The notes below the pieces were generated by a model. That model had not been told where the DNA came from, did not search any database, and worked only from the letters and a program-made list of their open reading frames with translations. Shown piece after piece: positions 8,801 to 64,000 of a stretch of 64,000 bases of DNA. Source of the DNA: Amoebophrya sp. A120 (Eukaryota; Protista; Dinoflagellata); contig CAJINV010000013.1 in the NCBI GenBank assembly GCA_905178155.1, forward strand, positions 1,326,392 through 1,390,391, written 5' to 3'. A program made the translations under genes and the position numbers. Positions within the stretch are counted from its first letter, which is position 1, and the number at the start of each line of letters is the position of its first letter.

Positions 8801-11395
8801 TTTCTGGAAGAACAACCAGAAAGCGCTAGATTTTATGGAGGACGAGTGTCAGAAAAGGCTAACTACCAAAGCCTCCGTCCAACAAGAATCCGCGACAGGC
8901 AAGGATGGGCAGCTGCGGGAGAAAAACCTCAAGGTGGCAAAGGAACTACAAAAGGACGTCGATGGTGAACACCTTGCGAACTCGAAGATATCATCGGCAA
9001 GTAGACCTCTCCGCTGCATAGACCGCATTCTGGCTATTCCGAAGAACACAGTCCCCGGGCTCCACTACGACGCGTTTGTTGAAAGAGGTGATAAAAATTC
9101 GAAGATGAGCTCCGTTCTACCGCCGCGGAATACAATTGCAGCTCCCACTGCGACCACTTCTGCCGATTCTTCCCCTCTGAAACAGCTGCTACAAGACACG
9201 TACCAAGTCATTATCCGTCAGGACTGGGACCTGCGAACTGACATTTTCCAGCACCTGCACGACTCGCACTACTGGGTGAATTTTGTCTCAAATCAAACGG
9301 CGTACGCGGTGAACATGATTTGCGACCAGTTTAAACTGTTTGTCCTTCTGCAGTTAGCGCAAGAGTACACGGCGGTTCTGACCTTGGACTCTGACTACCT
9401 GATCGTGCAGCCCTACCGGGTTCTGGAGTTTTTTGCGTTTTTGGGCAAAGACGAAAATGAGAATTTGGCGTTTATGACGCCGGAGGGGCCGCTCCACGTG
9501 TCGATGATATCGTGAGGAAAAATCCCCCCTCCCCATACCAAAAAGGGACACTGCTGAAAATTTGCGATGCTGATTTGTGGCCACAGATCGTCTCTGTATT
9601 GCAAGAAGGCCAAGCCAGAGACTCCGCCGCATTTTGCAGGCGGTTTCTGATGCTATGGGGCCTACAGAGTACACATTTGCCATGCTACGCGCCTACGTCA
9701 AAACCCTCCTACTTAGGCTTGGCATGGGCCTGCAGTCCTCTACTGCAAGACAGACCTGATTTGTGTGCCCAAGTCCAGCATTAGAAACTTCCTCTTGATA
9801 TGGGGAGGGGGGATTTCTCCTCTCAGTAGATGATGGCCGCGAGTCACGTCACGTGGCGGGCGGACCTGGCGGTGCAGGAAGCGTGGCGGAGGATCGTTTT
9901 GCGTGTGTTCGATATGCACAGCGGCACGGAACTGTTTCCACCGGCGTATGTGAAGGAACATCAGGCACTTCTTCTAGCGAGCAACAAAAATGAAAGGGGC
10001 GAACAGGAGCTAGCAGCGGAAAGCGAAGTCGTCCCTTCGCGAAGTAGCAATAGTGGCAGAAATGATGTAGAGCGGCGGGAAAAGAACGAAATGCAGAGCA
10101 CGCACTCGTCGACGCCGTTGAGGTCTTGGACGGAAAGCTACGGTCTGACGGAGTACAGGGCGCTGCAGAGAATTGCCGGACGCAGATGGAAAGCCTGGTA
10201 TAAGGAACGACAAGGGCAGCTTTTGAAGGCAGCACCAGTTCTTGGAACCGGACAGGACCTGCAGGCGGAGGAAGGCAATGATTCCCAAAAGAGCAACTAT
10301 GAGAAAAGTAGCACTACATCAACAAGTATCCAACACCACGAGCCTCCAGCAAAAATTACATTTGGCTCGTTCAGAAACTTTTGGGGCAAAGATTTCTTCC
10401 TACACAATTTGTTCGGCGTCACACCGCCGCAAATCGGCACCATTGCGTATCCGAACGCATTAGCCGCGGCTAGCACCGAAGCTGTCGTGAAAAAGCAGCT
10501 GCTCCCGATCTTCGACAGGACTGATTCAGATGATTCTACTGCGAAAGACGATCTAGCTCTACCGACTGCGGCAGGTGCTCCTCGAAAATTCAATCCGGAG
10601 GAGCTTTTCGACTACCAACATAGAAGAAAGCCATCAGGAATTATATCGACGCCCGAACACCAGGAGTTGAGCATGCTACAAGAAGAATATGCCGGAAGAC
10701 CTTCTGCATCCAAGTCGAAGCGGGTGCTGCACAGTCACGAGCACAGCGGGGTGACAGATACTGCAGAAAGTGGCGGCACTGGTAGAATTGTCGTGCGTGG
10801 ACAACATCCAACATCGACTAGCAGTGGTACAACACCAAGTCCGGATGGAAGCAAAATACAAGCCACTGCTGCAAAATCTTCGAACATTTTATTTTCTCCA
10901 AAACCGGACCTGCCCCCGAAGTTCTTCGCGCGGATCGGTCACACCCCTCACCCCGTGCCCCGGACGCACATTGGGTTCCAAACGATCAACGGGCAGAACC
11001 TGTACGGTGTGCGAACGGTCGGCGGGCAGGGGGTGACAGGATATTTGCTTGGGTTCGTCCTGCCGAATTGGGAAAGGAGGTTTGAGATGCTGGAAGAATG
11101 GAAAGACGAGGGTGGTAGAAATATTAAAGCGAAACAAGAACATGATCTCCGTGAAGACCACGCGGAACATGAGTCGGCTCCAACAAATAGAAGCAAGTCC
11201 TCGCCCACGTCGACAAGCTTTCGCCTGCGACTGCTCCCCATGTGCCGTTGGGCCTACATGGTTCAGATGGAACACGACGAGTTTCATTGCGACGGGGACC
11301 TGGGACCCCCGGTTCTCGTGCACAAGCCGGACCAGGGGCTGGCGCTGTACATGCGGAAGTGGGCGCGGTTGCGCCAGTGCAAGGTGGGGGAGTAG
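5812..11395 (+). CDS. Large hypothetical protein, possible type II membrane glycosyltransferase (exons ~5812-6539, 6893-9507, 9834-11395)
   Basis: A GT-AG intron at 6540-6892 joins the ORFs in frame. Removing the TIR element 9508-9828 plus one GATGA gives …HVSM-MAASH…. N-terminal hydrophobic anchor and AVLTLDSDYLIV (DxD) motif. Function is tentative. Confidence 0.6.
9508..9828. mobile_element. TIR introner, family B (321 nt), TSD GATGA
   Basis: TIRs TATCGTGAGGAAAAATCCCCCCTCCCCATA / TATGGGGAGGGGGGATTTCTCCTCTCAGTA. Perfect 5-bp flanking duplication. Frame restored. Confidence 0.92.
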
Positions 11396-11944
11396 ACGGA
11401 ACCTCAGACCTCATCTGCACAGTGGTTGCTTTTTCGCAGAGCAACGCTTCCTCCTGCGCAACGATTCCTCCTAATACATAGGGTATGCCGGGTGTGTGTA
11501 GCATTGAGCTGCAGTGTGGTAGCATGTAGATGTGGCCGCCTGGTGAAGCTTGTCGGTGCTCATGCCGCAGCCGCTGTGATGTGACCGAAATAATGCAGGA
11601 TCCGATTGGGCGGAAAAATTAGATAAAGGACCTGAAATTTTCTCTGTGGCTTCAATAGTTGGTGACAGATTGTTGTCTCAGTCATTTGCCTGAAAAGCAG
11701 AGTTCGCTGTGCCGGTGCTTGCAAGGATTGGATGTGGTGGTCCCCCAGTTCATTTTTTTTGGTTCTAACGGAACAGGAACGGATAGCATTTTTTGTGTGC
11801 TATCAAGAACTAGCGCCTTTTTTGCGGCTGTTTTTTTTCGCACGCATTGTTCATTATCTCATTTTTCTTATCATTTCACGCAATTTTTCTAGTCGGCACT
11901 ACGAACCATTGACGTGACAAAGCACACGAACAAGGGACATAAAA

Positions 11945-12622
11945 ATGTGCGCGCCCGAGGAAAAGAACGCTAGCACTTCTACCGACGAACAGTCCCCGGA
12001 TTTTTCCGCCACCTCGTCGTCGTCGCTGATTCCGGTGTTCGGCTACGGCTCCAATAACCTCGAGCAGGTGGGGCAGCGGGTCCAGGCAACGGATTTGCAG
12101 CTCCGGGCGGCGAAAGCCATCCTGCCAAGGTACCAGCGAAAGTTCGTTTGTCACTCGAACCGGTGGGGCGGGGGAATCGCCACGGTGGTGGAAAATCGTA
12201 GCCAGACTGCGGGGACATCAAGGACCTACTGTCGCGGCTCTGTGATTTGGTTGTCGCGAGAGGAGCTGGAAAGGCTCGACAAGTGGGAGGACGTCGTCAG
12301 TGAAGATCCGAAAAACAGTACTCGCATGTACCGGCGCGAGGAGCTGGAGGTGGAGATAATTATAGGAGAATCTGTGGCCGCTCCACCCGCTCCACCCACG
12401 TCTGGGTCGTCTCATTGCAGCAGCTCACAAGGTGTAGGTGATGCCGGCAAGAGCAAGTCTTTATGCGGTAGTGTACCGCTAGAAAGGGTGAAAACAGTGG
12501 CAGCGCAGGTGTACGTGAAAAATGTAGACACGCCGGAGAATTTGCCGAGTCCGGCGTACCTGACTGCCTGCGTGCGGAATCTCGCGTATTTCTGGAGCGA
12601 GTACGAAATGGAACGAGTATAG
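11945..12622 (+). CDS. Gamma-glutamylcyclotransferase (GGCT/AIG2-like) family protein
   Basis: Motifs VFGYGSN, RWGGGIATV, GSVIWLSREELERLDKWE, AQVYV and PSPAYL. Confidence 0.85.
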   Translation: MCAPEEKNASTSTDEQSPDFSATSSSSLIPVFGYGSNNLEQVGQRVQATDLQLRAAKAILPRYQRKFVCHSNRWGGGIATVVENRSQTAGTSRTYCRGSVIWLSREELERLDKWEDVVSEDPKNSTRMYRREELEVEIIIGESVAAPPAPPTSGSSHCSSSQGVGDAGKSKSLCGSVPLERVKTVAAQVYVKNVDTPENLPSPAYLTACVRNLAYFWSEYEMERV

Positions 12623-13671
12623 GCGTAGTGTGTTTGCTATGCGAGGCTTCTCAAAGTTCAATGCGGCCCTGTGACACTGTCAGAGCTGTGCACATCAAGA
12701 ACTTTGGGAAGTAACGCAGGCTGCAGACGAGTTTTTTTCCAATGGGATATCCGAAAAGAAATCGCGGACGAGCTGCAGGGACTGGAAAAAATAGCGCTGG
12801 CCGAATTTTCGCAGGACTGTATCCGCGCTTGACAAAAATCAAATTGGATTTTGAGGACGTTGGTCGTTTCAGGCATCTGCATAGAAAAGACAATTCGAAC
12901 GCGAAACCGAGCACCACCGTGGAACTCTTTTATCGTCTCTCAGCGCGCAGCACGACATTCACATTCACATTTTGGACATACTTCTATTTCCATTTTCAGT
13001 GGACGAAATTCAGGCAGAATGCTCCAATTTTTCCGCTGTTACAGCAGTTTAAGTAACGGTGTGTGACGAGGACAATTATTTCCGTGGATCTGACGGCAGG
13101 ATTTACAGTTCCTGATACGATCTTCATATGCGATCTGGAACCTACCACTGGAAAAGTTGAAGTTCCGATGAAGCTCAACCTTGTGACATCATTCAGACGA
13201 AAAAGGAAGAACTGTGAATATGATCTTCTTCATCACGGGCAAGAAAATAACACGCTTGTTTGAACGAAAAAAATGTCGATCTTGCAACGGATATGGACGA
13301 TCTTGAACTCTGCGGTCATTAAGGAGCGAGAAATAGTGCGGAAATCCTGGAAGCGAAGTGGAGGCACATGCGCTTCGGATCTGTGTCTGTCTCTCATTCG
13401 ATGGCCACCAAGCTCATCCTCCACCTTGTGCAGCACCTTATGCATTGCATGATGCATGAGAAGATACAATCATACGAGTAGTAGCGTCATCCCCCTTCAG
13501 TAAGCTGCTATGAAATAGTGTGTCGTTATTTGCGGGAGATCAAAGGCGCTAGGTAAGTCAAAAGCTGCTGCCCCATGGAGAACCATTTTTATTTTTGCGC
13601 GACTCGTGCACTAAGTAAAAAAGAGAGCAGTGCTTTTCATTTCTAAATTCGCTTAGCAAGAAGTTTTCACC

Positions 13672-17170: not shown

Positions 17171-19542
17171 ATGGCGTCGAGCTCTGGGGCACAGCAAAAC
17201 TCGAATCACATGGATTTTCTGCGTAACCAATAGCAAAATCTTGAGTCAGTGTCTGCGATACAAAGTTCTTTGAATTATTTTCATACATTTCTGCATGCAT
17301 CAGGTTTTCAAGAGAATCATTTTACAAACTACACGCAGGTCTCGTTGAAGATTTGGGTGCATGATGACACACAGCAACGCATAGAAAGGCGCCATTTTTT
17401 CCTTGACAGCAGGCACTGGACTCAAGTTTTGCGCAGCATACCGCGACGGTTTGCATACGCTGCGTCGTCGGAAAACTCCTCCTCCTTGGGGGCAGTACCT
17501 GGAACGCCACAGAATGGACCGCTGAGCATCAGCATACCCATGTCACCTCTGAATCAGCACTACGGAGCAGCTACCGGAGTTGGGTTCTACAACGATAGTG
17601 CGACGCCGACTCCAAACGGAATGATGCCGTTTCAGGGAATATGGAATGGAAAAAACACGACGACCGAGTAGCTTTTAGTTTGGGAGTCGTGTCACTTCTA
17701 TAAAGACGGGAGGCAGCGCACTCGTGTTGACATCAGACATAAAGAAGACCTCATCTCTGCATTAGGAACAACTTTTTTTTTTCGTAAGCAGGAGCAGATG
17801 AGCCATATGTATGAAAATAACCAGTACTTTGCGACACAAGCTCGTATTTGGTTCCCTGCCACGACCTGTGAAAATATTGTGCATGAATTTCTACTTTATG
17901 GATTCAGCAGGGCTCTTTCTGCTGTGTGCGTTCTCGTATTTTTAGAGTTCCAGTAGTTTATTTTTCTGCAGGTGGTCGCGTTTCCGTATCCGTTTCCGTT
18001 CCATAGAGAAACGGGATGCTGCATGGGTACAGCTTTCCGAACACCCCCGCGGCTATGTCCTCCACTTCGTCGTCTCCGCAGCTCTTTTACCACGAGAATC
18101 AGCAGCAGTATCATGGCAGCGGCAACGTGGGCGGGGCAAGTGGAGATACCAGCAACTCCGTGATGAATAACAACTTTCAGCAACAACGGCAGCCGTTTTT
18201 CCAACACCAGTCATATGGACAGGCTCCACCGCAGCATCCGCAGACCGCTCTGGCTGCGATGAGCGGAGGTGCGGGGATGATGTTCATGAACAGCGGCGGT
18301 TCATTTTTCAATAACGGCTTCAATAACAATCCCGTTTCCACCTCCGCAGCGACGACGCCGGGTGGGCAAATGCAGCACAGCTTCTCGTCGCCTAATGTGA
18401 ACAGCGCGACCGGAACTATGATTGGTGTAGTCGGGGGTAGTGCAAACCACAATCACGCTTCGTACCTGAATAGCCCCTTCGGAGCGTCGTCATCTACCAC
18501 CACTTCCGCAGGGCGGCCGTACTTCAGCTACATTGGGACGGCTCAGAATCCGCACTTGAAGCAGCCAAGCAAGGTGGAAATTTTGAACATGTATCTGCAC
18601 ACAGTGCAGGGGCACGCAGCGGGAAACGGTAAAAATGCTATCAGATAGCAAAAACGCATCAACCCATGATACCTTTCGCGAAGATTGAGTCTTACTTACG
18701 TTCTTTGCATTGACTGAGAAAAAAAAGAGGAAAATAGTTCCTGTGTATTTCAGGGAGCAAGAGAATCATTTTTACGCATATTCTCTGTACTGGGTAACAA
18801 TATGGTCATTCGTGACAATAATTTTTCGAAAGTTATTCTTGAATCTAAAACGATAGACCAGGCACTAGAGGGCTCTATGGGTTGTACGTTTTTCTTCACG
18901 ATATTCGGTGCCGCCAAGCAAAGCAAGGACACTCCTGTCTTAGCGGAGAACATCTGGCCCCTGCCGGTGCCGGTGCTGCCCCCGGGGGCGTTGGACTACC
19001 TGAACGGTGAGTCAGCATTGAATGTGAAGGCGAGTAACACCGCCCCCGGGACGCCCTTCTACAATGGCGCTGCGCACCAGCAACAAGCGCCATTTTATCC
19101 TCCGTCGAACGGGAATATAATTAGTCAGACCGCACCCTACACCCCGACGACCAGTACCGCGACCAGCACCATCGATAACCAAACAAACTCGGCATTCCAG
19201 AGTTCAATGGTGAACGCGAACAACTACGAAGAGGGTGTAAGTAATCGGGGGAGTAACAGCACTAACAGTTCTGGACCGAACTTTTCGAAAACTCCGCGGG
19301 GCGCCGGTGGGAGCGGTCGAAGCCTGAATAATGGTGGGCAGCACGCGGCAATCAACAACGCTATGCATAGCAAGTACAGCAGCTACAGCAACAGTAGCAA
19401 CCATACCTCGCCGTACAACACGAAAAACAGCACCAGCAGCCCAGCAACGCTGAACACGAAGACCCCTAGTAACGCCACAACGGTAGCTGGCGCCACCTCG
19501 CGGCTTTACGACATGTTCAATGCCAACGACGAGCAAGGATGA
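17171..19542 (+). CDS. Q/N/S-rich low-complexity hypothetical protein, 4 exons separated by three TIR introners
   Basis: ATG at 17171. Removing the elements at 17224, 17640 and 18639 (each plus 5 nt) gives MASSSG…DFLRRFAY…FQGNGMLH…KNAAAKQSK… in one frame. Confidence 0.7.
17224..17440. mobile_element. TIR introner (217 nt), TSD CTGCG/CCGCG
   Basis: Inverted repeat GCAAAATCTTGAGTCAGTGTCTGC / GCAGGCACTGGACTCAAGTTTTGC, TA ends, frame restored. Confidence 0.8.
17640..18005. mobile_element. TIR introner (366 nt), TSD GGGAA/GAGAA
   Basis: TATGGAATGGAAA … TTTCCGTTCCATA. Frame restored. Confidence 0.8.
18639..18903. mobile_element. Degenerate TIR introner (265 nt)
   Basis: TATCAG…AAAAACGCATCAACCCAT / ATGGGTTGTACGTTTTT…CGATA. 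The TSD is decayed but element+5 removal is in frame. Confidence 0.65.
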
Positions 19543-20942
19543 GAAGAAACACGCGCAGGAGCAGCTCGCTCCCATTGAACGACAGCGGCTAGATCTGGCA
19601 TCTTATTTCATATCTAATTTTTGGCGAGTGCTTTTGCTTCAGCACTCCTATATTTTCCTAGTACTAAGTTTATCAATAATGTGAAGGGTTGTACTTCCTG
19701 TTCCTTTTCCTGCAAGTTTTTGGACGTAGAAGTTGGAAAAAAGTACAATGATTTCGAGGAGTCACGCCATGAGAGAAGCCTTGTGGCAAGCAAGTATTTC
19801 TGCAGCAGCAGCACAGCTGCATTAGTATTTATTAGGGAGGCCGTTCTGTAGTTTGGACTTTGATAACTTCTATCTCGTAGACGGTTTTCCGTCGCAAGAC
19901 AGAATCGGATCCACTCTACAATTTCTTACATTTGAGGAGATATATACAACTCGTTGCAGGATGAGGATGAAGTCATAAAGGCAGCAGTGTCGCCAGGTCT
20001 TTATTTTGATGCCTCTCGTCTGTCAGGAGGAGGCGGAAAACAAGAATTTTATACCGCCAATGGCAAATAGAAAGAGCAGTACACGAGCTCTTGAGTTGTG
20101 CGCAGTATACTATTCTTGCTTTATTCGACATTGGCAGTAGACAAGATTGAGACTCAGCATCCTTTAGCTTCATGATTGAGTCGGTGACTACAGTCGAGCA
20201 TGGCTCTTTTTGCAAGGAAAGACCGACAAAAATTTGAGGCTTCTTCGGAAAAGCCGCACTCGATTGTGGAAGATGAACAAAATTGTTGTTTAACGTGCGC
20301 CACAAGTCGCTTCGCGTGTTGAATTTTGGAGATGACATGTAGAGCTGTTCCGCGTCTTTGTCGGCTGTCTAGAAGTACCTCTGATTAGTCATTTGGCGTC
20401 TTGTTTGGTTTGTCGTCCTGAATTTGAATTCGTCGACTTCCTAAGGGTAAGTAAAGACTTCGTGCGCTTTTTTCGTACTGATTTCGTGATTGCGTTGATG
20501 CGTGGTGGATTTTTTCGTGCATTAATGAATTTTATCTCGGTCGTCGTCCTGCGTTCTATATCTTTTTCGAAAAGCTATCGGTCCGCTGTGTCGTCCTGCT
20601 GGTGCTTCCGTTCATGAGTAGTTGCCGCAAGGCCGCTTAAAAGAACTGACTATCCGTGCAGAAAACACTTTCTTGAATACCATTCGTTTGCAGTCGTCCC
20701 CTTCCGATTCGGATTACTTGTTTGTATTTCCCAAAGGATTTTTCTTTTTGTCCACCCAGCAGATCCTGCACTACACTCTTGTTGAATTTATTCACGCAAA
20801 AACTGTAAGTGGTCGACGTACAACATTTGTCGACTGCCGACTAGAAGATTTTCAATTTTTTGCAGCGTTTTGAAGAAGTGGAAAAACTTTACCGAGTCAT
20901 TCTTGTTCAAGTGATATATCATCCGCATCTTCTTGTTCCAAC

Positions 20943-23603
20943 ATGCAGATGGTTCGACAAATTTCTTTACTTCTCGCCGGGGTCGTACATCACACCTTCC
21001 CGGATGTGTTGAGCCGTGGGGTTTTCTTCGGGGTTTTACTTTCGCCCACGCTGGTTTACGCCTTGACCGTGAATCGGATCGGAAAGCGAGATGACAGCCG
21101 CGCGCAAAAGCTGCAAGACGATCTGTCTTCCTGTTGCGGCGACGTGCTAGAGATGTATCCAGTGGAAAACAGGCACCCAGCCATTAGAGGTGTCATGCGG
21201 ATCTTGCACGAGCACGAGCAGCAAGTGTCTGTTGCCAGTCCCAGACATCTTCTCGTCACGAGAGCCACTTATTTTCTAGTCATGTTTTTTCAGGCGTTAT
21301 CGTCATGCTTTGAGCAGGATGAAAGCGTGGAGTTGTGATGCGTTCATACTACTTAGCTCATCCCGACTGCTATGCGATACACCGAACTTTCTTGTGATTC
21401 GCGACTCGATGTCCCAGATACGTCTGCTCTTGTGTAAACAGGATTCACGACTGAAGCCTCTATGATGACAGGGTGGCTACGTTTTTCAACGCGATAGGCT
21501 GCCGGAGCCGATCGCCTCGGCAGAGGCGAATGTGACGGGCCGCGCCACCCTGGACAACATGCTTACGATACGCGTTGCAAATGTGTCACATTCGCTTTGG
21601 AGGAGAAGCAAATGATAAAGAATGCCTACGAAATAAGAAGTACCTGCGAAGGGCGGAGTCTGAGTTTGCAGTGCACTTCCGATTATGAGCGTAAGAACAA
21701 CTTCGTAGCTCTGCATTGTACAACAGCATATAATAGGGGTGGCAGAAATATACTGCCTCTTGATAGAATGTTTGTCGCGCGCAAAGAGCCGTGCAATAGT
21801 GAGTCGTGCGGAATTTGGACGATACGAAGCCTGTCAGAGTTTTCCAAATACAGAAACGGCTCCCTCTGTGTGTATTCCTATTGTTCTCCAGGTGATCTGC
21901 GTGGCATGGTTGCGATGCATATGGAGTTTCTGACAGCGTGATGGCGAACAAACCCTCGAACGCGCTTTCGTTTGACCCGGCCAAGGAGGCAGAATTCCTC
22001 GGCAAAATGGAGGATCCCGTGCATATTCTTCTGCAAAGCCGGTCCTTGACAATCAAACATGACCTGGCGGACGCCTTGGTCGTGATCTCCAAGGCTATGG
22101 GCGACACCAGCTATGGGCGACACCAGGCTATTGGGCGACACCTGAAAACGCAGCAAAGGCTTCGCGGAAGAGTTGCGTGACCTGGTGGAAGGTTTGATTG
22201 GCTTGGAGGGCACCCAGTTACCTATTACCGCCGACATTGCCACCGACTTTGCGCCCCTTATTCGTAGAGACGTTGTCACCTTCTCCCTGTGGAATCTGTG
22301 GGACGGACTTACTACGGCATTCCGGCAGCTGCTAATCTCGGCAGAAGAGGCGGAGTCGGCAGCGCAAGCCGCCGAGCTCATGGACAAGGTCGATCTGCTC
22401 CTATCGTGCCTCGAACAACCGATTTTCTCCACGCCCGAGGCTTCTGCGGGCGTTCCGCTTGTCCTGAAACAACACGGCTTTCCGGCGGAAATGGTTGCGT
22501 TGCAGCAACGGAACTTCACCAAGGAGGCGCGCCTCGCTCTGGGGGCCGTTCGCAAGGTCGGGAGTGGGACGACCAATGAGGCAGTCTTCAGTGGTTGGCA
22601 GACACAGTTTGCGGTCTTCGCGAATGCCCGGGCTGCGGCGCTGGACGACCTCGACAAGCTGCTTGACTACGTTCGCGGAGAGACGGCGGTCAATCTCGTC
22701 CTAAACACCGCGGAGCTTGCGGTCCGGGACCTTTCCCAGGGAGATGATCCTTTGCGGGACTGGGCTCAGGTACAGGCCAGGGAGACTTCCTGGGGCGAGG
22801 CCTACAACGCCGCAGAGTACCTCGACTTGGCCAATAAAGCGCGAAGCGCCGCGGAAGGGGAGCCGTGGCAGTGGGTGGTCTACCAACAATTTACCACCGA
22901 TTTCCGTGCTGCCTCGCTCCCGCGCGACGACTGGGAGGTACAGTTCAAGGAGGTTCTTACGGAGCAGGCGAAGAAGTATGTCGACGTTCAAGCGACAGCC
23001 CAAGATGGAGCTAGTACGAATTCTACGGAAACGTCCACTCCTCCCCCAGTGTCTATGAGAGACATTTATGCGAAAGCCGCAGAAGATATCGTCAAAAATA
23101 CAACATCGCCGCTCGGTCAAAAAGTGGATGAGCTTGTTGGCTTGCAGTGCGCTGCTGCCGTCGCCACTCTCCTGGAGGTCAAGTTTGGGCTTAACTTCTC
23201 TCAATTACAAAATGCCACCGCTCTACGCAAGCTAGCGAATTTCAAAGACACTGAAGCACAATTGGAGTTCTTACATGCGTTTTACACGAAAAACTCGTCG
23301 GGCCTCGGTATGGGCGTTCTAGTTCTTTTCGAGATCCTGCACCACGGAGCGAGCAAGGAGTTGGGAGAAATCGCGTTGCTGAAAGACGAAGAAAAGCGTG
23401 TCGAGGTGAACAAAATTTTGTTTTTGGTGCAGCGTCCGAACTATGAGCTGCCGAAACCGGCACCGGCACCTCCGGCACCGGCACCTCCGGCACCAGCACC
23501 TCCGGCACCGGCACCGGCACCTCCGGCACCGGCACCACAAGCGTTTCTTCAAAACCCGTCGCCCAGCAAGGTTGGCACAAGCCGCCCTGTCACGGTTGCG
23601 TAG
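20943..23603 (+). CDS. Secreted/surface hypothetical protein with C-terminal Pro-Ala repeat; two TIR introns and a 34-nt frame disruption near 22110-22143
   Basis: Hydrophobic N-terminus. Exons join in frame across the elements at 21156 and 21569. The long ORF 22173-23603 ends in (PAPAP)n. Confidence 0.6.
21156..21496. mobile_element. Degenerate TIR introner (341 nt), TSD AGATG/GGCTG; also reads as a GT-AG intron
   Basis: TATCCAGTGGAAAAC..CACCC..CATTAGAGG versus the reverse complement of the right end TATCGCGTTGAAAAAC..CACCC..CATAGAGG. Frame restored. Confidence 0.65.
21569..21921. mobile_element. Degenerate family-A-like TIR introner (353 nt)
   Basis: TACGCGTTGCAAATGTGTC … GGCATGGTTGCGATGCATA. 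Element+5 removal gives MLT-I-SDSVMANK in frame. Confidence 0.55.
23457..23537 (+). repeat. Coding tandem repeat (CCGGCACCGGCACCT)n encoding PAPAP
   Basis: Directly visible. Confidence 0.9.
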
Positions 23604-49304: not shown

Positions 49305-52300
49305 ATGGCGCTGGTGGCGGTGAGCAAGCACCCTGCGGCGCACACGGAAAATTTCCGGTCCACCAATGTGCGTTTTTTGCAGGAACAGAACAAGCAGGCC
49401 TTGTCGGCCTTGCAAAAGGTTGAAGAAGAGAGAAATGAGGTATAGTACACGACTTTTTGCAACTCCTTTCAGTGGTCTTGACTGTCGGCAGTTCTCGTTG
49501 CACTGAGTTTGTTACTAGTACCATTCCTACTGACAATACAGCATCGGAGACACGACCTTTTTCGATATTTTGCACACGTCGTCTATAATAACATCAAGCA
49601 GACCACCGAGCTACTACAAGTTGACCGAAATAATAAATTTTTTTATTTCACCTTTCTCAGGCTTTCGCGGTCATTAAGGAATGGGAGGCCAAGCAGTCGA
49701 AGCTCGAGGGCGAATATGACGACCTGCAGTATCAGCTCGAGGACCTGGAGCAGAGTAACATCAAGTCCCGCGCGGGCCTGCAACAAAAGGATGAGCACGT
49801 GCGCGTGCTGTCGGAGCAGAACCGGCAGCTGCTCACCATGCTGGAAACGGAAGAGGCGAAGGCAAAAAGCAAACAGGAGGAAGTCGTGGTGGCCATTGAT
49901 CTCAACAAAAGTCTAAAAGAACTGCAGGTACTTTGAAAATATGATTTTTGTGATGCTGAAAGGAAAATGATTTATTCCCCGTTCGTTTTCTACACCTAGT
50001 TTTGGAAGGCAAAGTGCCAACTTCTTCAAAATGTTTGAAGTACTCGTCTGCACCATCTCCGTTTTTAATAAAGTTAATGCGTGTTATGAAGTGCATTTGG
50101 CATATACCACAATTACATGATACCACTCGACGAAAATAATTATATCAGGTGAAGTTCGAGAAGATGAAGGCGAGCGGAGATGCCCAGCTGCTGGCCGTTA
50201 CCACTGAGGTGGTGAAGCTACAGGAGGAGGCCAAGAATGCGCGCAACGAAACCGAACAGCTGCAGACGGCGGCGCGGAATTTCACCGCGCAGGCCAAGCG
50301 GGACATCGAGGAACTGGAGGAGCGGCTGCAGGAGGCCAAGAAGCAGAACGTGCTGCACCTGCAGCAGATCCAGCACAACGAGGTGAACGAGCACCGGTTG
50401 CTGGAGAAAATCAACTCCTGGAAGTTGCAGATCGAGGAACTCGGGGTGCAGAAAAAGGCCATCAAGATCCAGCTGGACGGGGACCTCATGGCCCGCGGGA
50501 GTTGGACCAAGAGCAAGATGGACATTTTGAAGCGCACCGAGATGCTGGAAGAAACCGCGGGCGAGCTGCGGGCGGCGATCGTGGCCGCGGAGCAAACCAA
50601 CAGCAACATGACGGAGGAGAATCGCAAGGGGGCGGAAAACTTCCGGGAGATGGGGGACAAGGTGTACTCGCTCATGGACCAGCTGCGCATGAACCAGGTA
50701 AACTTGAAAAAAGAGGAATCCACGGCGAAGGACCGGGAAAAGAAGATCGTGCAGCTGGAGAAACAGTATTTATTAGTTGGGGCTACTAAAGGCGATATTT
50801 TTTGTTCTCCTACTATGAGCTGTAGAAGTTGATGTTGTAGTGCGGTCGTTTCTTGATACGTCGGCGATGATCGGAAAGATGAGTAAAACTTTTGTACAAG
50901 AGCATCAAATACTTCTTTTTACGCATGCAGTTCCCGTTCCGTACGTGATCATGCGGAACATCAAGCGAAGCGAATGAATTTTCCAAACAGGTACCAGCTG
51001 CTGCAGCAAAAGCTTTCGCTGGAGGTGGAGGCCAAGCAGCAAGCCGAGCAGGAGTCCCGGTCTTCGGCGCAGATGCAGGCACTGCTAGGGAAAAAGAACA
51101 AGAAGCTCGAGGAAGGTTTGCAGCTGGCGCTGCGCGGGCAGGAAAAGGCGGAAAAGAAGCAACAGGAACTGGCGGACAAGGGGAACGCGCTGCAGACGCA
51201 GAACGCTTACTTGGCGGCCCGCGTCGACGGGCAGGAGGAGGATAAGATGGCTCTGAAGGCGGAAATACGGAAGCAGGCCGAGGACGGGAAGCAGTGCCAG
51301 CTCACCTACCAGTCGTTGCAAACCCAAAAAACTGAAAAAGAGGACGAGCACAACGCGCTAGAGGCGGAAAAAGCAGCGATAACAGCGGAGTTGGACTACA
51401 TACGAAGAGAGGACATGTTGGACGAAACAGGGAGAACAAAGGTGAGTACTTAGTTTTATAGTCTATAGACAGATAAGGACTTGACTCAAAAGCTGTAGAG
51501 GAGAGTTGCGAAACCCTTAAACAGGGTCTAAAGTTGCGGCTCAACCTGCAGCAAACCTGGAGCAAACCCCTAGGGCTTTTAGAAGTGGCGCAGTTTTCTA
51601 CTCGCGAATGCGCACGCTATTCGACCCAAAAGATGGAGGTCGACCCGTAGGGAACAAGCAAAAATCGCGAAAAGTGCGACATTTTGGAAGCGCTGAACCT
51701 GCATGCTATTACGACAAAACCTGGAGCTTTTCTGGGGCTCGAGCTCTAGAGCTTTTCATGTATTTGCGCTCTTATTTTTCGAAAGCGCGTGCTGCTGTGG
51801 AAATATTTGTATTTCCGACAAATTCTACGACTTGAGCTGTAGGGGTTCAGCGCGATGAGCGACAAAGAAACCCCTGGGCGCTGCAAAAATAGCCCGAGCC
51901 CTACACGCAGCGACAACCCCCGCGCTCAGAAGAGAGCCCCTTGTCGCCTTCAATATGCAAGTGCCCCTCGCCCAGTGTTGTGCGCCCTGCTGCTGGTGGC
52001 GGCAGCCCTTGCCCCTGCGTGCGGGCGCCTGCCACGTCGCCCTGGCAGCATTTCTCGCTCTTTGCGTTAGGTCCTGCCCCTCGCAGTAACTCTTGTCCCT
52101 CGCAGTAGCTCTTGCCCCTCGCAGTAAGTCTTGCCCCTGCGCATACGCCTTGCCCCTGATAGGACTTCTTGCCCTTTGTAATACTAGCACCCCTTGCCCC
52201 TCGCAGAACATCTCGCCCCTGCAGGCACATCTTGCCCCTGATAGGATGTCTTGTCCCTTGTAGTACTAGTGCCCCTTGCCCCTCGAAGTACATCTCGCCC

Positions 52301-54299
52301 CTGCAGGCGCATTTTGCCCCTGATAGGACTTCTTGTCCCTTGTAGTACTAGTGCCCCTCGCCCCTCACAGTACATCTCGCCCCTGCAGGCACATCTATCT
52401 TGCCCCTGCAGGCACATCTATAGTTGGACTACATACGAAGAGAGGACATGCTGGACGAAACAGGGAGAACAAAGGTGAGTATTTATTTTACACTGAAGCT
52501 GGTTGAACTTGTTTTCCTTCATGATATGAACGAATGAAATGCGCGTCGATTCTTTTCATTTTTCATGGTGTTGTTTTATCAGCATGGTCATAAGAATTTA
52601 GATTGGTTTTACTTTCCCTATCAAAACAGCCTGTGCTCATCGAGTCCAACGACAGCAAGCTGGTGGAGCGATTGCAAATAAACGAGTTCCTATACTCCGC
52701 GCAGCAGGCCAGAAACCCAGTGCCCATGATCATCGAAAAGGTACTCCTGGTCGCGGCTATTCTGATGTGTTTTTGCGAATGGTGACGGTCAATAAAAAGA
52801 AAAAATCAACATCTTCTTGATGTGGTAAATCAATAGACAAGAAGATACATAGTATATCCCATCAGGAATGTTGATTAGATGACTACAATCAACCAAGGTT
52901 TCGCACGTTCTTGAGCTGCTCCACACGGCGCAAACCCAGTCAGACCAATACCTGCTCGACCTGCAGAAATCGAACTCCTTGCTGCAAGCGCTGCGACAGA
53001 AGAACCTCACTTTGTATGAAAAGTCGCAGGCGTGCGAGAGCTGGAAGCTGCGTGCGCTGATGAAGATTGTGGCCAACGCGTTCCAGTCGCGTGAAAGCTA
53101 CAGTGGCATGCACACCTCGGACACCTGCAATCTGTTTCTGGACGGGCTGCAGTACACGACGAAGGAGCTCGAGCAGCTGAAGGAGCTGGTGATTTCCTAC
53201 GACAGGCAGGACAAAGTGCACCAGCTGCACCTGCAGGACAACGGTTTGACCGACGACGCGTTGGGCATACTCCAGGACTTGCTCTCCACCATGCCCTACC
53301 TAAAAATTCTGGACGTGAGGAAAAACAAGTTGACCGACATCGGACTGCAGTCCTTAAGGGTGTGGCTCTCGAACCAACCAGGTACTTAACAAGCAAGCAG
53401 AATTTAAGTAAGTAAGTACTTAAGGATTGATTACAAAATTATGTAAGGAAATCATACATTAAGTGGGCTGCACTAGGAGCAGTAGCTTGTTTTTTATGTT
53501 CGCACCATCTGCTTCTGTACGAACCAGACTTTTGCCTGCATCTGCAAATGTAGTGCCACATCGATCTCCTTACTATCACTAATATTGCACGTTCTGGAAC
53601 TAAACTTCTACTCCCAGGTATAACCGATGTGACCCGCGACTTGCAAGAAATTCGGGCGCGCAGTGGGAACCAGATTCGGTTACGCGTCCTTGTGGAGGAG
53701 CAGGGCGAGCTACGAGAGTGCACAACTCCACGTGCTCTCACGGATTTTTCATGCAAAATGTCCGAAAATCCTTTCATGGCAGCTTTTTGGCCATAGTTGA
53801 AGTTGTATGACAAGTTGATGTTCTGGAAGCCCAAACTTCTCTACAATCTCTACGTCGATCATTTGTCATGTAAAGGATCCACGATGTTGCTCTCGGTGCA
53901 GGTTATTTCTGTTGCTCTGCGTTGCAAATGAAGGTGAGCGAAAGTTGTGCACTCTCATACGAGCAGCATCACGAGCCGTTGCCGGTTTCCTTTTCTTCGT
54001 CCAACCAGAGGACCGATATGGCGTCTGTGCAGGCCGACGATTTTCTGGCCAGCGCCGCCGGTGTCACCGCGGAGAAGGGACCGTTGTCCAGCTACATCGA
54101 CGTGCAACATGCGAACCCGGCGGCCGGGGCGGCGAACGGCGGGGCCGCGGCCGGCGGCGAGAGTCTAGACCCGCAGTACGGCGGGGTGCCAGTCGGTTTG
54201 GGTGGGGCGGGTGACACGATGGGCCGTTTGGGGGAAAAAACCGGACTGCCGGCTGTGAAGGCAAAGGCCGGGGCCGGACCCAAGGCAGGCAGGCGGTGA
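49305..54299 (+). CDS. Multi-exon coiled-coil protein with C-terminal leucine-rich repeats
   Basis: E/K/Q/L-rich heptad exons (MALVAVSK…, VKFEKMK…, YQLLQQK…) and LRR motifs LHLQDNGLTDD and LKILDVRKNKLTD. Mostly GT-AG introns plus one TIR intron. Confidence 0.75.
51389..52481 (+). repeat. 60-nt duplicated exon end plus donor (51389-51448 and 52422-52481) flanking a ~970-nt insert
   Basis: AGTTGGACTACATACGAAGAGAGGACATG(T/C)TGGACGAAACAGGGAGAACAAAGGTGAGTA occurs twice with one mismatch. Confidence 0.88.
52070..52420. repeat. Intronic minisatellite built on CTTGCCCCT units with an ~82-nt higher-order repeat
   Basis: TTGCCCCTGATAGGA recurs at ~52150, 52232 and 52314. Confidence 0.85.
53711..53959. 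mobile_element. TIR introner, family D (249 nt), TSD CGAGC
   Basis: TACGAGAGTGCACAACT / AGTTGTGCACTCTCATA. Perfect TSD, frame restored (EQGE-QHHEP). Confidence 0.9.
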
Positions 54300-55691: not shown

Positions 55692-58600
55692 ATGTCGGAC
55701 GACGAAGCTGAAGTGAAGAAGCGGGCCGCTAAGCCGAGCTCCGACGATGACGAGTCGTCTTCCGACGACCTGGGCCCCATGCCGGCCCCGGAGAAGCCGG
55801 GAAAGGAGGAGAAGAAGAAGAAGAGAAAAATCATGAAAAACGAGAAGCTGTACCAGGAAAACTTGCCAAAGTCGCAGATGTACGAGAAGTCTTTTATGCA
55901 CCGGGAACCCGTGCGGGTGATCTGCACCTCGACGGATTGTGACTTCGTCGTGACCGGCAGTGAGAAGGACGGCATCGTGAAATTCTGGAAAAAACAGCAC
56001 CAGGGGATCGAATTTGTCAAGCTGTACCGGGCGCACGCGCTATCCTTGCTGCACATGACTTTGTCCGCCAGTGACGGGCGAAATTTGGCCACGGTCGGTG
56101 TGGACTGCCAATTTGACGCAAAAGGTATTTTTTTTACTACGAGAGTTTATGCGTATCAATCAATCTTGTGATCCGGGGTCGTGTTTAATATTCCGAACAT
56201 GTTTGAAAATGGATTCTACAACTTCTGCCCAGGCAGGTCCTTACAAGCTTTTTTTCCACGTAAACGCATTGATGCCGATGCGTACTTCTCTATAAACTAT
56301 TATGTTTGTATAGCATGAACACCAAGAAACTGCACGAAACTCATCTCCAGGTAAGCCCATCGCGTCCTCGCGTACCTGCGCTCTGAAATATTTTGACGTG
56401 GCCAATTTCGATCTGTCTCAAATGATCAAGTTGGACTTCGTCCCGCTGGTCTGCTGCTTCGTCAGCCGGAAGGAAAAAGCGGACGTGAGAATCGCCGTCA
56501 CGGATCAGAACTCCGGCGCCATCCGGATCTTCAGTCAGTCGCAGTATTACAGTGAAAAATGCCCCCTCCCCATATCAAAACGGAAATCTGTGATGCAGAT
56601 TTGTGGTCACAAATCAGCTTTGTGATGCTAGAAGGCAAAAGATGCGGACTGTAGTGCTGTCTAGCGTGGGAAAGCCTTGCAGCTCCAGGATGACAAAAGG
56701 CAACTGGAAGTGGGAAACAGCATGACAGATTAACTGCGATTTAGGCCGCAGCTTCGTTTCTTGGCCTTCTAGCAATACAAGTTGATTTGTGTACTCAAAT
56801 ACAGCATCACAAGTTCGCGCATCTTTCGTTTCCGATATGGGGTGGGGGCTTTTTTCACTTTGATACGCAGTCCCAAGTGAGCCAGAAACCTATTCTCGAG
56901 TTATTGTGAGGAAAAATCCCCCCTCCCCATACCAAAACGGGATACTTCTCAAAATTTGTGATGCTGATTTGAGGTCACAAATCGTCTCTGCATTGCAAGA
57001 AGACAAATAAAAAACCCCGCCGCGTTCTGCAGGCAATTTGTAATGCTGTCTGGCCTACAGAGAACGCCCCTACCTTGCTAAGCGCCTACACCAAAACATC
57101 CCTAGTCCGGCTTTGTATCTGTCTGCAGTCCTCTACGGCAAGACAAAGCCGATTTGTGTACACAAATCCCGCATCACAGATTTCCATTTCGATATGGGGT
57201 GGGGGGATTTTTCCTTTTGATACGAGTTCACGCAGCGGCACCAGCACCCGATCTCCATCCTGGAGTACCACCCCGCGCTGGACATGTTATCAAATGTAAA
57301 AATGTCTGGGTCTGGAAGATTGGAACTTCAACTTGTCATGCTAAATCTGCAGCATGCAAAAATCTGTGTTGCATGATTGCCAAAAGTCGTCCAGTTTTGA
57401 CCAAGTCGGGAGGGAGTTTCTCATGCAGGAGAGGCATGAGAAAGGTCCCGCAGAGTCTGTCATGCTAGGTCTTGCATTCCAGACCTCATGGGTCATGGAA
57501 AAGCAGCATGACAAATCGCGCATTCTTCCAGACCCAGACACTTTTACATTTGATACATGTGCCTGTCGCACGATAAAAAGGGGTTTCTGGAACTCTGGGA
57601 TCCCGAGACCGGGAACTGGCCGAGTAGCGGGACCAGCCAGCAAACGGGGGAGAAGCGGTTAGACCGATTTGACATGAACAAACCCGTGAAATTCAACCGT
57701 CAGCTGCTCAAGTTCAAGTCAAAGACGGACGGCACGGATCTGTACGAGCTGAACAAAAAGCAGACCTCCGCGGTATCGCTCAAATTCAGCCCGAACGGCG
57801 AGTACTTCGCCATGCTCTGCTTGGATGAACGGGTCCGGATCTTTCGCACAAGAACCGGAAAGAAGTTTCTCGAACTCGACGAGGCCGTGGACCAGTTGAC
57901 GATAGCGCAGAACGACCCAGCGCAGCGCATTTTGCACCTGGACCACTTTGACTTCGGGAAACGGGTGGCGGTCGAGCGAGAACTGAAAAAGTCGCCCTGC
58001 TACCAGTGGCAGTCGCTTTCCTTCGACGAAAGCTCAAATTATTTACTCTACCCGACCCTGTGCGGCGTGAAAATCTTCAACCTGACATTGCGGAAACTGG
58101 AGAATTTGCTCGGAAAAGTGGAGTCAACAGAAAGGTTTTTGCAGTGCGCGTTATTTCAGGGGAAAGGACAGAAGCGGATGGTCGGGGCGAGTGAGGCACT
58201 CGCTGGGAATGCGTATTTGTTGATATAAGATTTTTGCTTTTCTGCTTCTGCATGTTCAAATAGTATATGTTTGAGTTGTGGGTCAACATCCATTTCAATC
58301 CTGATTTGTGTTTGTTCAGTTGGTCCGGATTTGTGTGAGCCTGACGATGCGTGCTGCAGAACGTTTCTGCAGAGTAGCTGTTCGGCGCGAGCAATACAGG
58401 TGCACGACGTGCTGGTGCAGCACTCGTGTCGAGGGCAGAGCAGGCGAAGTGCAATATAATTTTTAGCTGAAAAGAATAAACTGTCAAACACTACAGCCCC
58501 GGCCAGCAGCTTGAAACCGACCCTACTCTTTTCGCGACGTCGTTTCGCAAGAACCGGTTTTTTCTCTTCACGAAGCGCGACCCCGAGGACGATTTGGGGG

Positions 58601-59160
58601 AGGACGAAGTGGGGCGCGACGTCTTCAACGAGCTCCCCTCCAAGGAGGAGCAGGCCCTCGCGGTCTCGGCCGCGGACACGGTGCGGCTGGGCCGCGAAGC
58701 CATCATATCCACTTCGTTCGGCGACATCGTCATCTCGCTTTTCTTCAACGAGTGCCCGAAGACGGTGGAAAACTTCTGCACGCACGCGAAGAACGGGTAC
58801 TACAATAATCTCCGGTTCCACCGTGTGATCAAGGGCTTCATGATCCAAACCGGCGACCCGCAAGGCGACGGCACCGGTGGGGAATCCATCTGGGGCGGCC
58901 ACTTCGCCGACGAAATTCGGTCGAATCTGCGGCACGACAGGCCGTTCACGGTGTCCATGGCCAACGCCGGACCAAACACCAACGGCTCGCAGTTCTTCAT
59001 CACCACGGTAAATTGCCCGCACTTGGACCGCCTGCATACCGTGTTCGGCCGGGTGGTAAAGGGGGAAGAGGTGGTCTCCCGGATCGAGCGGGTAGCGACG
59101 CGAGTGGACGATAGACCTGTGCAAGATGTGCAAATGATGTCCATACAAGTCACCGGATGA
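55692..59160 (+). CDS. PPWD1: Peptidyl-prolyl isomerase with WD40 repeats (PPWD1/CYP71 orthologue), 6 exons
   Basis: [55 protein letters not shown], and a cyclophilin domain with [27 protein letters not shown] and [17 protein letters not shown]. Four TIR-type introns and one GT-AG intron (58213-58496). Confidence 0.93.
56109..56374. mobile_element. Old non-canonical intron of probable introner origin (266 nt), TSD ACTGC/CCTGC
   Basis: Removal plus 5 nt gives [17 protein letters not shown], matching the PPWD1 pattern. The TIR is barely recognisable. Confidence 0.55.
56545..56865. mobile_element. TIR introner, family B variant (321 nt), TSD CGCAG
   Basis: TATTACAGTGAAAAATGCCCCCTCCCCATATC / GATATGGGGTGGGGGCTTTTTTCACTTTGATA. 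Perfect TSD. Confidence 0.92.
56902..57222. mobile_element. TIR introner, family B (321 nt), TSD CGAGT
   Basis: TATTGTGAGGAAAAATCCCCCCTCCCCATA / TATGGGGTGGGGGGATTTTTCCTTTTGATA. Perfect TSD. Confidence 0.93.
57288..57555. mobile_element. TIR introner, family A (268 nt), TSD CATGT
   Basis: TATCAAATGTAAAAATGTCTGGGTCTGGAAGA / TCTTCCAGACCCAGACACTTTTACATTTGATA. Perfect TSD. Confidence 0.94.
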
Positions 59161-62329: not shown

Positions 62330-64000
62330 TATCAAATGTAAAAATGTCTGGGTCTGGAAACTTGTAATGCTAAAAATGAATGCTAGACGCACTGCAATAC
62401 GCAGCTACGCATGACAATTTTTTTGGCTACCAATGTCTTACGTATTCCGCATGGCAAACTGCGTTTTTGCATGACAGGCGAGGAGCACGCCGGTCAGCAA
62501 ACGCGAGCGAGGAGCACGCCGGTAGCAAACAAAAGAACGGCGGAGCAGAAAACAACGCAGGAGAGACAGAGAGGATCGGGAGGCGACGCGAGTCGTCACC
62601 AATCTGGAAGCCACCAGCGAAAAAACGAAAACCCGCCCACCTCTCGCAATTCTTCAACGTCGCGGACATGTTCGGACCACTAGGGACGGAACTTGGGGGC
62701 AACATCTTCGGCGCAGCTCCACGAGGACAGGGAGAGACAGGAAGCAGCAGCTCCAGCAGCTCCTCACGACCGGCGCAGCCGAACACAGAAAACCCCCCCA
62801 AGGCGAAGCAGCCCCCCCCTTAGCGGCAAACCCCCCTTACCCTCCCCCTTGGGCAGACATGCGGCAGTCGGCCAGCAGCACAAAAGGATAGCAGAAAAAG
62901 CTACAGGGTCCCAGCGCGGCAGGGGCGCACAAACACACGAACACGGAGCCAGGAAAGCGAGGAGTAGCTCACACTAGAAGAAAAACAAGTCAACTTTTAC
63001 CAGAAAAGCAGCAGACTAGTCGTTTTCTTCTTTTTTTAAAAAAAATAGAAGGCTAAAAAAAAACTACTGCAGGAGTACAGGGAGCCAACAAGGCTCACTC
63101 GCCGGCAGAAGACGCGAAAGCTCACAGGAGAAGAGCAGTCGGGTGGGCTGTTCCGGCGGAGGGACAGAGAGAAAAAAAAGAAAGAGAAAAAATAGGAATG
63201 ACAAGATGGCGCGTAGACTGTACGTCCCCCCCTTTCCACAAACTTGGACCCCAAGTCCTCTTTGCACCGAACGCAACCAAAACGAAGCAGAACGAGAACG
63301 GAGGGAGGATTCGCGCCGGAGTTTTATTTTGCATGAAAACAAAAGAAAAACGGAAGAAGAAACCAAGCCCGCAAAACATATTCAAACCATGTGAGGCCAC
63401 CAGTGCGAAAACTTCTACGGAGTCTGTGCCTAACTTAGCCTGCGACCATGGTTGTGAATAGCCCCGAGGTTTTTCATATCCGGCAGCAGTCCGTCGAACA
63501 GTCCCCGTACCCCCAGAGTAGCCCCCCCAACTACTCGCCCGAGCCAATGATCCCACTCGTGCGTCGCACCAACATAGGATGGGCTCACTTTCTCGCTTCC
63601 AGGGAGTGCGAATTGGTAACTAACCGACATTGTGCCAAGAGGAGGGCCTCCCCGGGACCGCCTGGCGAAAGCCTGCCATGGGTTTCACTGTCCACGGGTG
63701 GTGTTGCGGGTAATCCTGACGAAAGCCAAAAACCGGCAGAAAATGGGGCCACGGAAGCGTTCTTGCTGGACATTGCCAACATTTGCCCATGCAGAGCCGT
63801 CCTCTTGCCGGACACAACCCACATCTGTCCGAAACAGCCTAGGGCCAAGACGACATCGTGAGGACGACCACAGGGGGTTCGTCTCAATGATGATGATGAT
63901 GACAGGCAAGAGGGCTTTTTCGTGCCTATGCAACACAGATTTTCGAGTCATGCCAGACAAGCATGACAAACTTGCATTCTTCCAGACCCAGACACTTTTG
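62330..64000. mobile_element. Family A introner (right end cut by the window) interrupted by a nested insert
   Basis: Left TIR TATCAAATGTAAAAATGTCTGGGTCTGGAA at 62330 and right TIR CTTCCAGACCCAGACACTTTTG at the window end. The arms are colinear with the reverse complement of 28275-28526. Confidence 0.88.
62480..63898 (+). mobile_element. Retroposon-like insert (5'-truncated LINE or SINE-like) with (TGA)n tail and 9-bp TSD ATGACAGGC
   Basis: ATGACAGGC at 62471-62479 and 63899-63907. The 3' end is …CTCAATGATGATGATGATGA and there is a short tandem duplication at the 5' end. No reverse-transcriptase motif visible. Confidence 0.7.

Follow-up and report, generated by a model that had tools for sequence, protein, structure and literature searches.

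Introners of an Amoebophrya sp. A120 genomic window are absent from RNA together with five flanking nucleotides

Introners have been described in Amoebophrya sp. A120 (Farhat et al. 2021, PMC7789003; Gozashti et al. 2025, PMC12130899). In the introner passages of these papers, they carry inverted repeats of the form TAT + 7 nt + AAA and direct repeats, contain no transposase and have RNA-supported non-canonical borders. Their repeats are given as 3–5 (or 2–6) nt and their borders as variable or unknown; because direct repeats blur borders, the border question has stood since 2021 for about 60% of Amoebophrya introns. The same strain is the source of the 64,000-nt stretch analysed here (hereafter the window; contig CAJINV010000013.1, positions 1,326,392 to 1,390,391). 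We confirm that this window contains non-canonical small-transposon introns, which share all the published features listed above. Here the direct repeat is uniformly 5 nt, and the cut, placed 1 nt upstream of the element's 5' TA and 4 nt downstream of its 3' TA (hereafter −1/+4), persists after decay of the repeat. The phenomenon itself is already known in A120, in the published parts cited above. An initial annotation of the window, made from its letters alone, overrated the novelty of what is the published A120 introner system; it also overlooked two points, namely that removal does not depend on the direct repeat and that a fixed register is indicated by the decayed copies. The fixed −1/+4 cut, its independence of the repeat and the lack of selection for GT or AG appear unreported in the same published parts.

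Elements were detected by an anchored scan for TA..TA inverted repeats (score ≥26), with three shuffles as control. At this score, 20 pairs were found in the window and 0, 0 and 0 in the shuffles; the list was then widened past these pairs by self-comparison, an end profile and RNA joints. We delimited 27 complete elements of 148–546 nt (7.8 kb in total) between 9508 and 57555. Together with one split element and one nested element of another kind, they make about 29, the number counted initially, although the two lists may differ. All 27 complete elements start with TA and 25 end with TA (42176 ends with CA and 45598 with TG), so that the nearly universal TA..TA bounds first described hold. 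Perfect 5-bp flank repeats border 11 of the 27, exactly the eleven of the initial annotation. Over the 19 clearest elements, 85 of 95 positions of the 5-nt flank repeat match, against just 18–32% for lengths of 2–4 and 6–10. In the end profile, TAT is present in 39–41 of 42 ends per position and A at positions 11–15 in 30–39 of 42. The published A120 end pattern (TAT + 7 nt + ≥3 A) is thus present in the window, and the end motif common to the families is TAT-N5-G-N-AAAA. Self-comparison separates several families, among them F1 (9508, 29026, 43463, 56902), F2 (28275, 32247, 40409, 57288) and F3 (31908, 45972), the remaining elements being single here. The families are repeated, as 21,026 DNA contigs were placed on 20 kb of the window, massed on the elements. 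A subterminal motif, TGT[ACG]ATGC, which was chosen from the window elements themselves, has 44 matches in their 8.0 kb vs. 3 in the other 56 kb; it is not in the published A120 introner passages (PMC7789003, PMC12130899). GT-AG can be read in some register in only 3 of 25 elements (43025, 43463, 46374), as expected from the claim that most lack it, and the GT/GC..AG ends of U2 introns fall at −1/+4 in 2 of 25.

We compared these elements with DNA and RNA contigs. Contigs of X1 have an even depth near 30 and, among the joints listed, extend across the element junctions, with breaks confined to repeats; those crossing a junction have a depth of 27–30, as for unique sequence. X1 is DNA with the elements in place, perhaps from the source sample. 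Runs X3 and X6, which come from one study and whose RNA status was assigned by guess, show uneven depth and lack three GT-AG introns; their contigs were placed on the window outside the PPWD1, 53711 and 62330 regions. Eleven RNA joints are listed, nine at elements and two short ones inside element 28275 that probably come from other copies. Each of the nine element joints lacks exactly the element plus 5 nt, the gap predicted initially for transcripts. In the M16A gene, the spacings of 188 nt and 55 nt between the pieces of an X3 contig of 7,119 nt equal removal of element + 5 at five elements, and an X6 contig shows the same 55 nt spacing. Elements 31908 and 32247 are gone together (552 nt in two samples), including the 32247 copy with the G-less TTTTC repeat that the initial annotation had singled out; here the removal is established by contig arithmetic. 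Element + 5 is therefore almost certainly absent from RNA of genes whose DNA keeps the elements, its removal depending neither on GT-AG nor on an intact direct repeat. The elements with RNA support are listed below with their left/right flanks; no strand is assigned to elements.

12602–12749, old element: GCGAG/TCCGA (1/5); RNA joint 12600>12754 giving a cut at −1/+4, ends GT..CG; one X6 contig with a 30-nt side; host is a GGACT-domain gene
17224–17440, old element: CTGCG/CCGCG; RNA gap 222 = element + 5 (X3, X6)
17640–18005, old element: GGGAA/GAGAA; RNA gap 371; retained form in RNA contig 17610–18037
18639–18903, old element: AATGC/TTCGG (1/5); RNA gap 270 (X3, X6); register 3 or 4
21156–21496, old element: AGATG/GGCTG; RNA gap 346 (X3)
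21569–21921, old element: TACGA/TGGAG (1/5); joint 21567>21926 giving a cut at −1/+4, ends AT..GA; one X3 contig with a 68-nt side
25721–33685, + strand, M16A (insulinase-family) peptidase frame: open only with the next five elements taken out
28275–28526, F2 element: CCCGT/CCCGT; RNA gap 257 (X3, X6)
28588–28893, element: AAACG/AAACA; RNA gap 311 (X3, X6); register ≤4
29026–29345, F1 element, inverted relative to 9508: GGGCG/GGGCG; RNA gap 325 (X3, X6)
31908–32186, F3 element: AAGCT/AAGCT; gone together with 32247
32247–32509, F2 element: TTTTC/TTTTC; gone together with 31908

In the raw RNA runs X12–X14, no reads with exon cover were found at any element; X13 holds one 3' fragment only and X14 one read only. 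The X13 fragment (19948–20282) begins sharply and is a polyadenylated 3' piece of the 17171 gene; it is plentiful in this raw run only and was probably amplified from few molecules. At 32476–32510, about 90 X12 reads carry the end of another F2 copy running into that copy's flank, i.e. a retained F2 copy in an abundant transcript elsewhere.

Then, we investigated the register of the cut. Copies with a decayed repeat locate it, because a perfect repeat lets the joint slide and a decayed one does not. If the left repeat is written abcde, the number of its bases that can be kept at the nine joints is 4; 2–5; 2–5; 3–4; 3–5; 4; 0–5; 0–4; and −1 to 5. Register 4 is the sole value fitting all nine joints, and the intron is then e + element + abcd. 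The exact register comes from two copies, 12602 and 21569. The ends of 12602–12749 were in the end profile before the RNA joints as a pair of low rank, and those at 21569 and 21921 were each there with a wrong partner; the arithmetic of the 68-nt exon leaves no extra letters at 21569. The four other old copies were found by a TAT-trained profile, which biases the conservation seen at their ends. Three of the nine joints concern copies whose flank repeat matches at 1/5 only. The direct repeat is therefore not needed for removal, and these spliced copies argue against template switching and homology-led DNA excision. At −1/+4, intron positions +2/+3 are the element's own TA. As a general rule this register is probable, since two contigs fix it exactly and the seven other joints allow it. 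A paralog of one host gene, at 43025, fits a register ≥3.

To broaden the sample, a metagenome collection was scanned with the F2 end. This F2-biased scan gave at least 162 stretches, of which 154 (572 kb, from another public assembly) were used as loci. An element finder blind to flank repeats made 330 finds (285 unique) in these loci and 0 in one shuffle. Among the 285, 199 have a perfect repeat at 5 nt and 35 match at 4/5, while other lengths between 2 and 10 are perfect in at most 21 of 285, and lengths 4 and 6 in none. Most flank groups lacking a match come from inner pairs that were wrongly taken for ends. In addition, 40 of 43 confident frame calls need one 5-nt copy (165 weak calls were dropped). 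TGT[ACG]ATGC occurs in 274 of the 285 elements, with a peak 30–50 nt from the ends, and in every family of at least five copies. No target-sequence preference was seen in these loci, and both orientations occur (3 same, 5 opposite). Splice-end statistics were drawn from 156 strand-called copies of a second finder (472 candidates) and compared with a phase-matched expectation. G at +1 is not enriched (50/156 vs. 46.4 expected; P = 0.54), G at −1 is near chance, no base is missing at +1 and none of the 16 dinucleotides is missing at the 3' end, and GT-AG at −1/+4 is present in 6 of 156 copies. An AG excess noticed early (7/37) fell to P = 0.08 under the phase-matched expectation, and none of the six old RNA-confirmed window copies has AG. 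One gene of these loci (L070, 3200–8100) carries about a dozen elements of several families in 5 kb. As for empty sites, 0 of the 154 loci overlap unique window sequence. A scan of a viral collection with two end patterns gave 0 matches.

We also looked at the host genes. Removal of element + 5 gives a stop-free frame in all six gene stretches tested, as initially claimed, but removal of +2 or +8 clears stops nearly as well. The frame alone therefore cannot yield the 5, which comes from RNA. With a codon model, 15 of 18 confident calls agree with +5; the misses are 17224 and 21156 (both +5 by RNA) and 41321. The M16A domains are restored by element removal (Pfam scan). Against NCBI proteins, a PPWD1 exon has 100% identity with one of Amoebophrya sp. 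A120 and 65% with A25, which bears out the link to Amoebophrya made initially. Taking out three elements (+5 each) and two GT-AG introns, PPWD1 equals the 677-aa A120 protein of NCBI letter for letter, which is an agreement with annotation and not with raw RNA; both rebuilt motifs of the initial annotation, M16A and PPWD1, are thus sound. The A25 ortholog of PPWD1 aligns across the element junctions, at the protein level only. Moreover, an A120 paralog (84% identity) is colinear across seven junctions of the gene at 42–46.7 kb. This gene (42035–46657) contains eight elements, is multi-copy in DNA (depth 70–200) and is almost without RNA cover in the runs compared. The elements are not all likely to lie in coding sequence, as first thought: 40038, with a weak frame signal, is probably intronic or untranslated. 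Over the 27 elements, support comes from RNA for 11, annotation for 3, the paralog for 7 and the frame alone for 6 (9508, 40038, 40409, 41321, 46374, 53711). The elements beyond those with RNA support, and the PPWD1 gene, are:

9508–9828, F1 element: GATGA/GATGA; within a 1,397-codon frame (6744–11393) once removed; no RNA joint, RNA depth about 1
40038–40363, element: CCCGG/GCCGG; coding position uncertain; outside the RNA contigs listed
40409–40676, F2 element: TGCCA/TGCTA; frame basis
41321–41561, F2-like element: CGGAT/TTAAG (1/5); open frame once removed
42176–42721, F2 element: CGTTG/CGCTG; holds a nested unrelated inverted-repeat element at about 42336–42577; paralog colinear
43025–43229, element: GCCGG/GCAGG; GT-AG at −1/+4; paralog
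43463–43783, F1 element: CAAGG/CAAGG; GT-AG at −1/+4; paralog
43815–44086, element: CACAC/CACCA; paralog residue compatible with register ≤3
44487–44725, element: CGAGA/CGAGA; paralog
45598–45803, element with an ATG end: CGCGC/CGCGA; paralog
45972–46297, F3 element: CCATC/CAGTC; paralog residue compatible with register ≤2
46374–46589, element: ACGTC/AGGTC; GT-AG at register 2
53711–53959, element: CGAGC/CGAGC; in an LRR gene
55692–59160, + strand, PPWD1 gene: 677 aa after the removals given above
56545–56865, F1-like element: CGCAG/CGCAG; in PPWD1
56902–57222, F1 element: CGAGT/CGAGT; in PPWD1
57288–57555, F2 element: CATGT/CATGT; in PPWD1
62330–64000 (to about 64008), split F2 element: 1.4-kb insert inside; right end past the window

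The insert of the split element (62479–63900, 1.4 kb) is flanked by repeated ATGACAGGC and ends in an (ATG)n run; from its sequence it looks like an insertion of the non-LTR (long terminal repeat) type, and a Pfam scan of nine of its frames gave no match. The nested element (42336–42577) has inverted repeats 93% alike over 46 nt, without TA ends or a clear duplication. In 20943–23603, with two elements removed, the frame ends near 22180, and 485 open codons follow in another phase; this break is not an assembly slip, because an X3 RNA contig matches the DNA without gaps. Other repeats of the window are an inverted repeat with outward-pointing F2-like ends in a probable GT-AG intron (41860–42088), an 81-nt tandem repeat present three times and encoding an RS-rich repeat (41572–41814), 82-nt and 19-nt tandem repeats in an intron-like stretch (52047–52400) and a non-coding repeat in two copies 81% alike (2023–2171 and 5168–5316).

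Concerning the origin of the elements, the uniform stagger, shared ends and shared subterminal repeat suggest that all families were mobilised by one integrase-type DDE transposase or a few related ones, which would have read the TA ends and the subterminal TGT[ACG]ATGC. The 5-bp stagger proposed initially holds across families (199/285), but the single transposase proposed with it was not found in the window or in the 572 kb of loci. The best lead, by analogy, is an integrase-type enzyme that may be IS3EU/GingerRoot-like, because of the TA..TA ends. A hAT transposase is a lesser lead; hAT transposons make target duplications of 5–8 bp. The Pfam scan detected no transposase family in 29 window frames. 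Long pairs in the loci were considered as autonomous copies, and five of the seven examined are chance pairings of neighbouring short elements, as judged on both ends or one perfect end; inspection by eye revealed no transposase-like frame in any of them. Among the A120 rows listed in Dataset S2 of PMC12130899, family 38 is annotated '5-bp TSD, TA/TA Termini' and contains integrase-like frames.

The reading that we prefer, with a probability of about 0.5, is that non-autonomous inverted-repeat transposons are removed from RNA with five flanking bases by a spliceosome-independent cut-and-ligate process that reads the element ends and cuts at −1/+4. A transposase with a 5-bp stagger would insert abcde-TAT..ATA-abcde. 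A cut after base d on both sides would then join abcd to e and restore the original target, so that insertion would be silent for the protein in either orientation. The signal would be the end motif TAT-N5-G-N-AAAA and its complement, pairing in RNA. The stem released by a two-fold −1/+4 cut would carry a 3' overhang of 3 nt, as expected from a nuclease dimer working at the base of a stem. What favours a separate nuclease that reads the ends, together with a ligase, is that three of the four terminal bases do not matter, along with symmetry and the lack of any drift to AG. Precedents are the inverted-repeat-triggered, spliceosome-independent SOS splicing (PMC12779559) and the non-conventional introns of Euglena, with a stem at fixed offsets (PMC12501133), as far as the cited parts describe them. 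Several observations weigh against this reading. Nuclease, ligase and transposase are all postulated and none was identified. The exact register depends on two contigs, one per run, and the paralog (84% identity) fits a register ≤3 at 43815 and ≤2 at 45972, which is weak but real evidence from a gene with little RNA cover. AG is slightly over chance (19/156 vs. 12.7 expected; P = 0.08). Retention in transcripts, named initially as a sign against removal, was seen for 17640 in one X3 RNA contig (17610–18037). SOS splicing, in the part of PMC12779559 cited, is imprecise and leaves indels. Four of the six old spliced copies lack a terminal pair in the predicted fold, which suggests that a strong hairpin is not the trigger. 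Finally, in this register the element's TAT occupies intron positions +2..+4, just as TAT does in the commonest canonical donor, GTAT (4/5 confirmed and 7/14 candidate GT-AG introns in the window).

This last point leads to a relaxed U2-type spliceosome, a serious if somewhat doubtful possibility, in which the element's UAU would be donor positions +2..+4, the branch an A at −7 or −5, close to the 3' end, and the 3' site set by distance, G+1 and AG being unread. Only one of six registers makes N-TAT resemble the canonical GTAT/GTAC donors, and the old copies keep TA and vary at +4 (TAC, TAA) as canonical donors do; the precision of removal and the weak folds of old copies also suit it. In the published parts cited, spliceosomal proteins are present and the U1 small nuclear RNA is undetected in A120 and A25 (PMC7789003), whereas a canonical-intron strain does have this RNA (PMC12005148). 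The Fritillaria spliceosome removes transposon-derived non-canonical introns (reviewed in PMC11282704), yet still prefers AG-AC/AG-AT in that account. T stands at +2 in all 18 predominant non-canonical motifs given in Table S4 (PMC7789003), which would fit the register rule as well. However, three of the four terminal bases would have to be free, none of six old copies has drifted to AG, G+1 and GT-AG are unenriched in the 156 copies, and end conservation in these mostly young copies shows no 5'/3' asymmetry. Variable cuts around a hairpin, as in SOS splicing, with a register set by copy or family and only target-restoring products surviving decay and assembly, are unlikely. Borders are called variable in print (legends of Fig. 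3 and Fig. S23, PMC7789003), A120 families are listed with mixed mechanisms and 2–6 nt repeats (Dataset S2, PMC12130899), contigs hide minor forms and the paralog residues at 43815 and 45972 point the same way; but all nine joints are exactly +5 in one shared register across unrelated old copies, and sliding of aligners at perfect repeats accounts for the published border spread. Precise excision from DNA, or a jump of reverse transcriptase between direct repeats over a hairpin, is very improbable. Young copies do have strong hairpins and perfect repeats, DNA and RNA were sequenced from different samples, and X1 joints were seen only among those listed. Against this, three copies with a 1/5 repeat match and weak folds are still removed, DNA contigs cross the junctions unbroken, the proteins require the removal, and a retained form (17640) is present in RNA. 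Of the RNA- or DNA-level excision left open by the initial annotation, the RNA level is thus retained.

If the end-reading cut-and-ligate process is correct, the 1+4 ruler equals the 5-bp stagger of the transposase, and a transposon superfamily enters coding sequence in either orientation without trace in the protein. The register also suggests a way for a transposon to saturate coding sequence at little cost. A single register turns the 'unprecedented splice-site variability' into one rule, corrects annotation and makes the splicing question directly testable. We tentatively extend the process to a second precise mRNA splicing system of A120, independent of the spliceosome, that would take out most introns by a 1+4 ruler at the transposon end motif; it would be an exact, genome-scale counterpart of SOS splicing.

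The non-canonical introns of Fritillaria borealis were reportedly studied by Henriet in 2019. Like those of A120, they derive from transposons with inverted repeats and target duplications, but they are removed by the U2 spliceosome with AG-AC and AG-AT preferences (PMC11282704, PMC13326754, in the parts cited, as for the papers below). Among transposons, IS3EU/GingerRoot share the TA..TA ends and have an integrase-related transposase, and TDD-4/5 share the 5-bp duplication (PMC10045372, PMC6839031, PMC2836005). IS3EU/GingerRoot differ by a mostly 6-bp duplication, when 0 of 285 elements of the listed loci are perfect at 6 nt, and Ginger1/Ginger2 by TG..CA ends (TGTNR) instead of TAT. In the literature outside subscription papers, we found neither a fixed register described for A120 nor any connection drawn between A120 and SOS splicing, and the cited part of the SOS splicing paper does not mention Amoebophrya (PMC12779559). 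In SOS splicing, DNA transposons leave mRNA on a trigger from their inverted terminal repeats and without GU-AG; the lack of GU-AG is shared by the A120 elements. SOS splicing, which requires AKAP17A, CAAP1 and RTCB, differs in being imprecise and multi-site, with indels left; in the window, 9 of 9 joints are exact, though contigs hide minor forms, and four old copies lack predicted terminal pairs. The non-conventional introns of Euglena (PMC12501133) also lack GT-AG and have paired ends at fixed offsets with a longer overhang at the 3' side. They make up about 70% of introns, coexist with canonical ones, and their rule was likewise drawn from joints that cannot slide. They belong to an unrelated lineage, with a CAG/CTG motif and offsets of 3 and 5 (1 and 4 in A120), and a separate end-reading nuclease and ligase have been proposed for their removal (PMC12501133).

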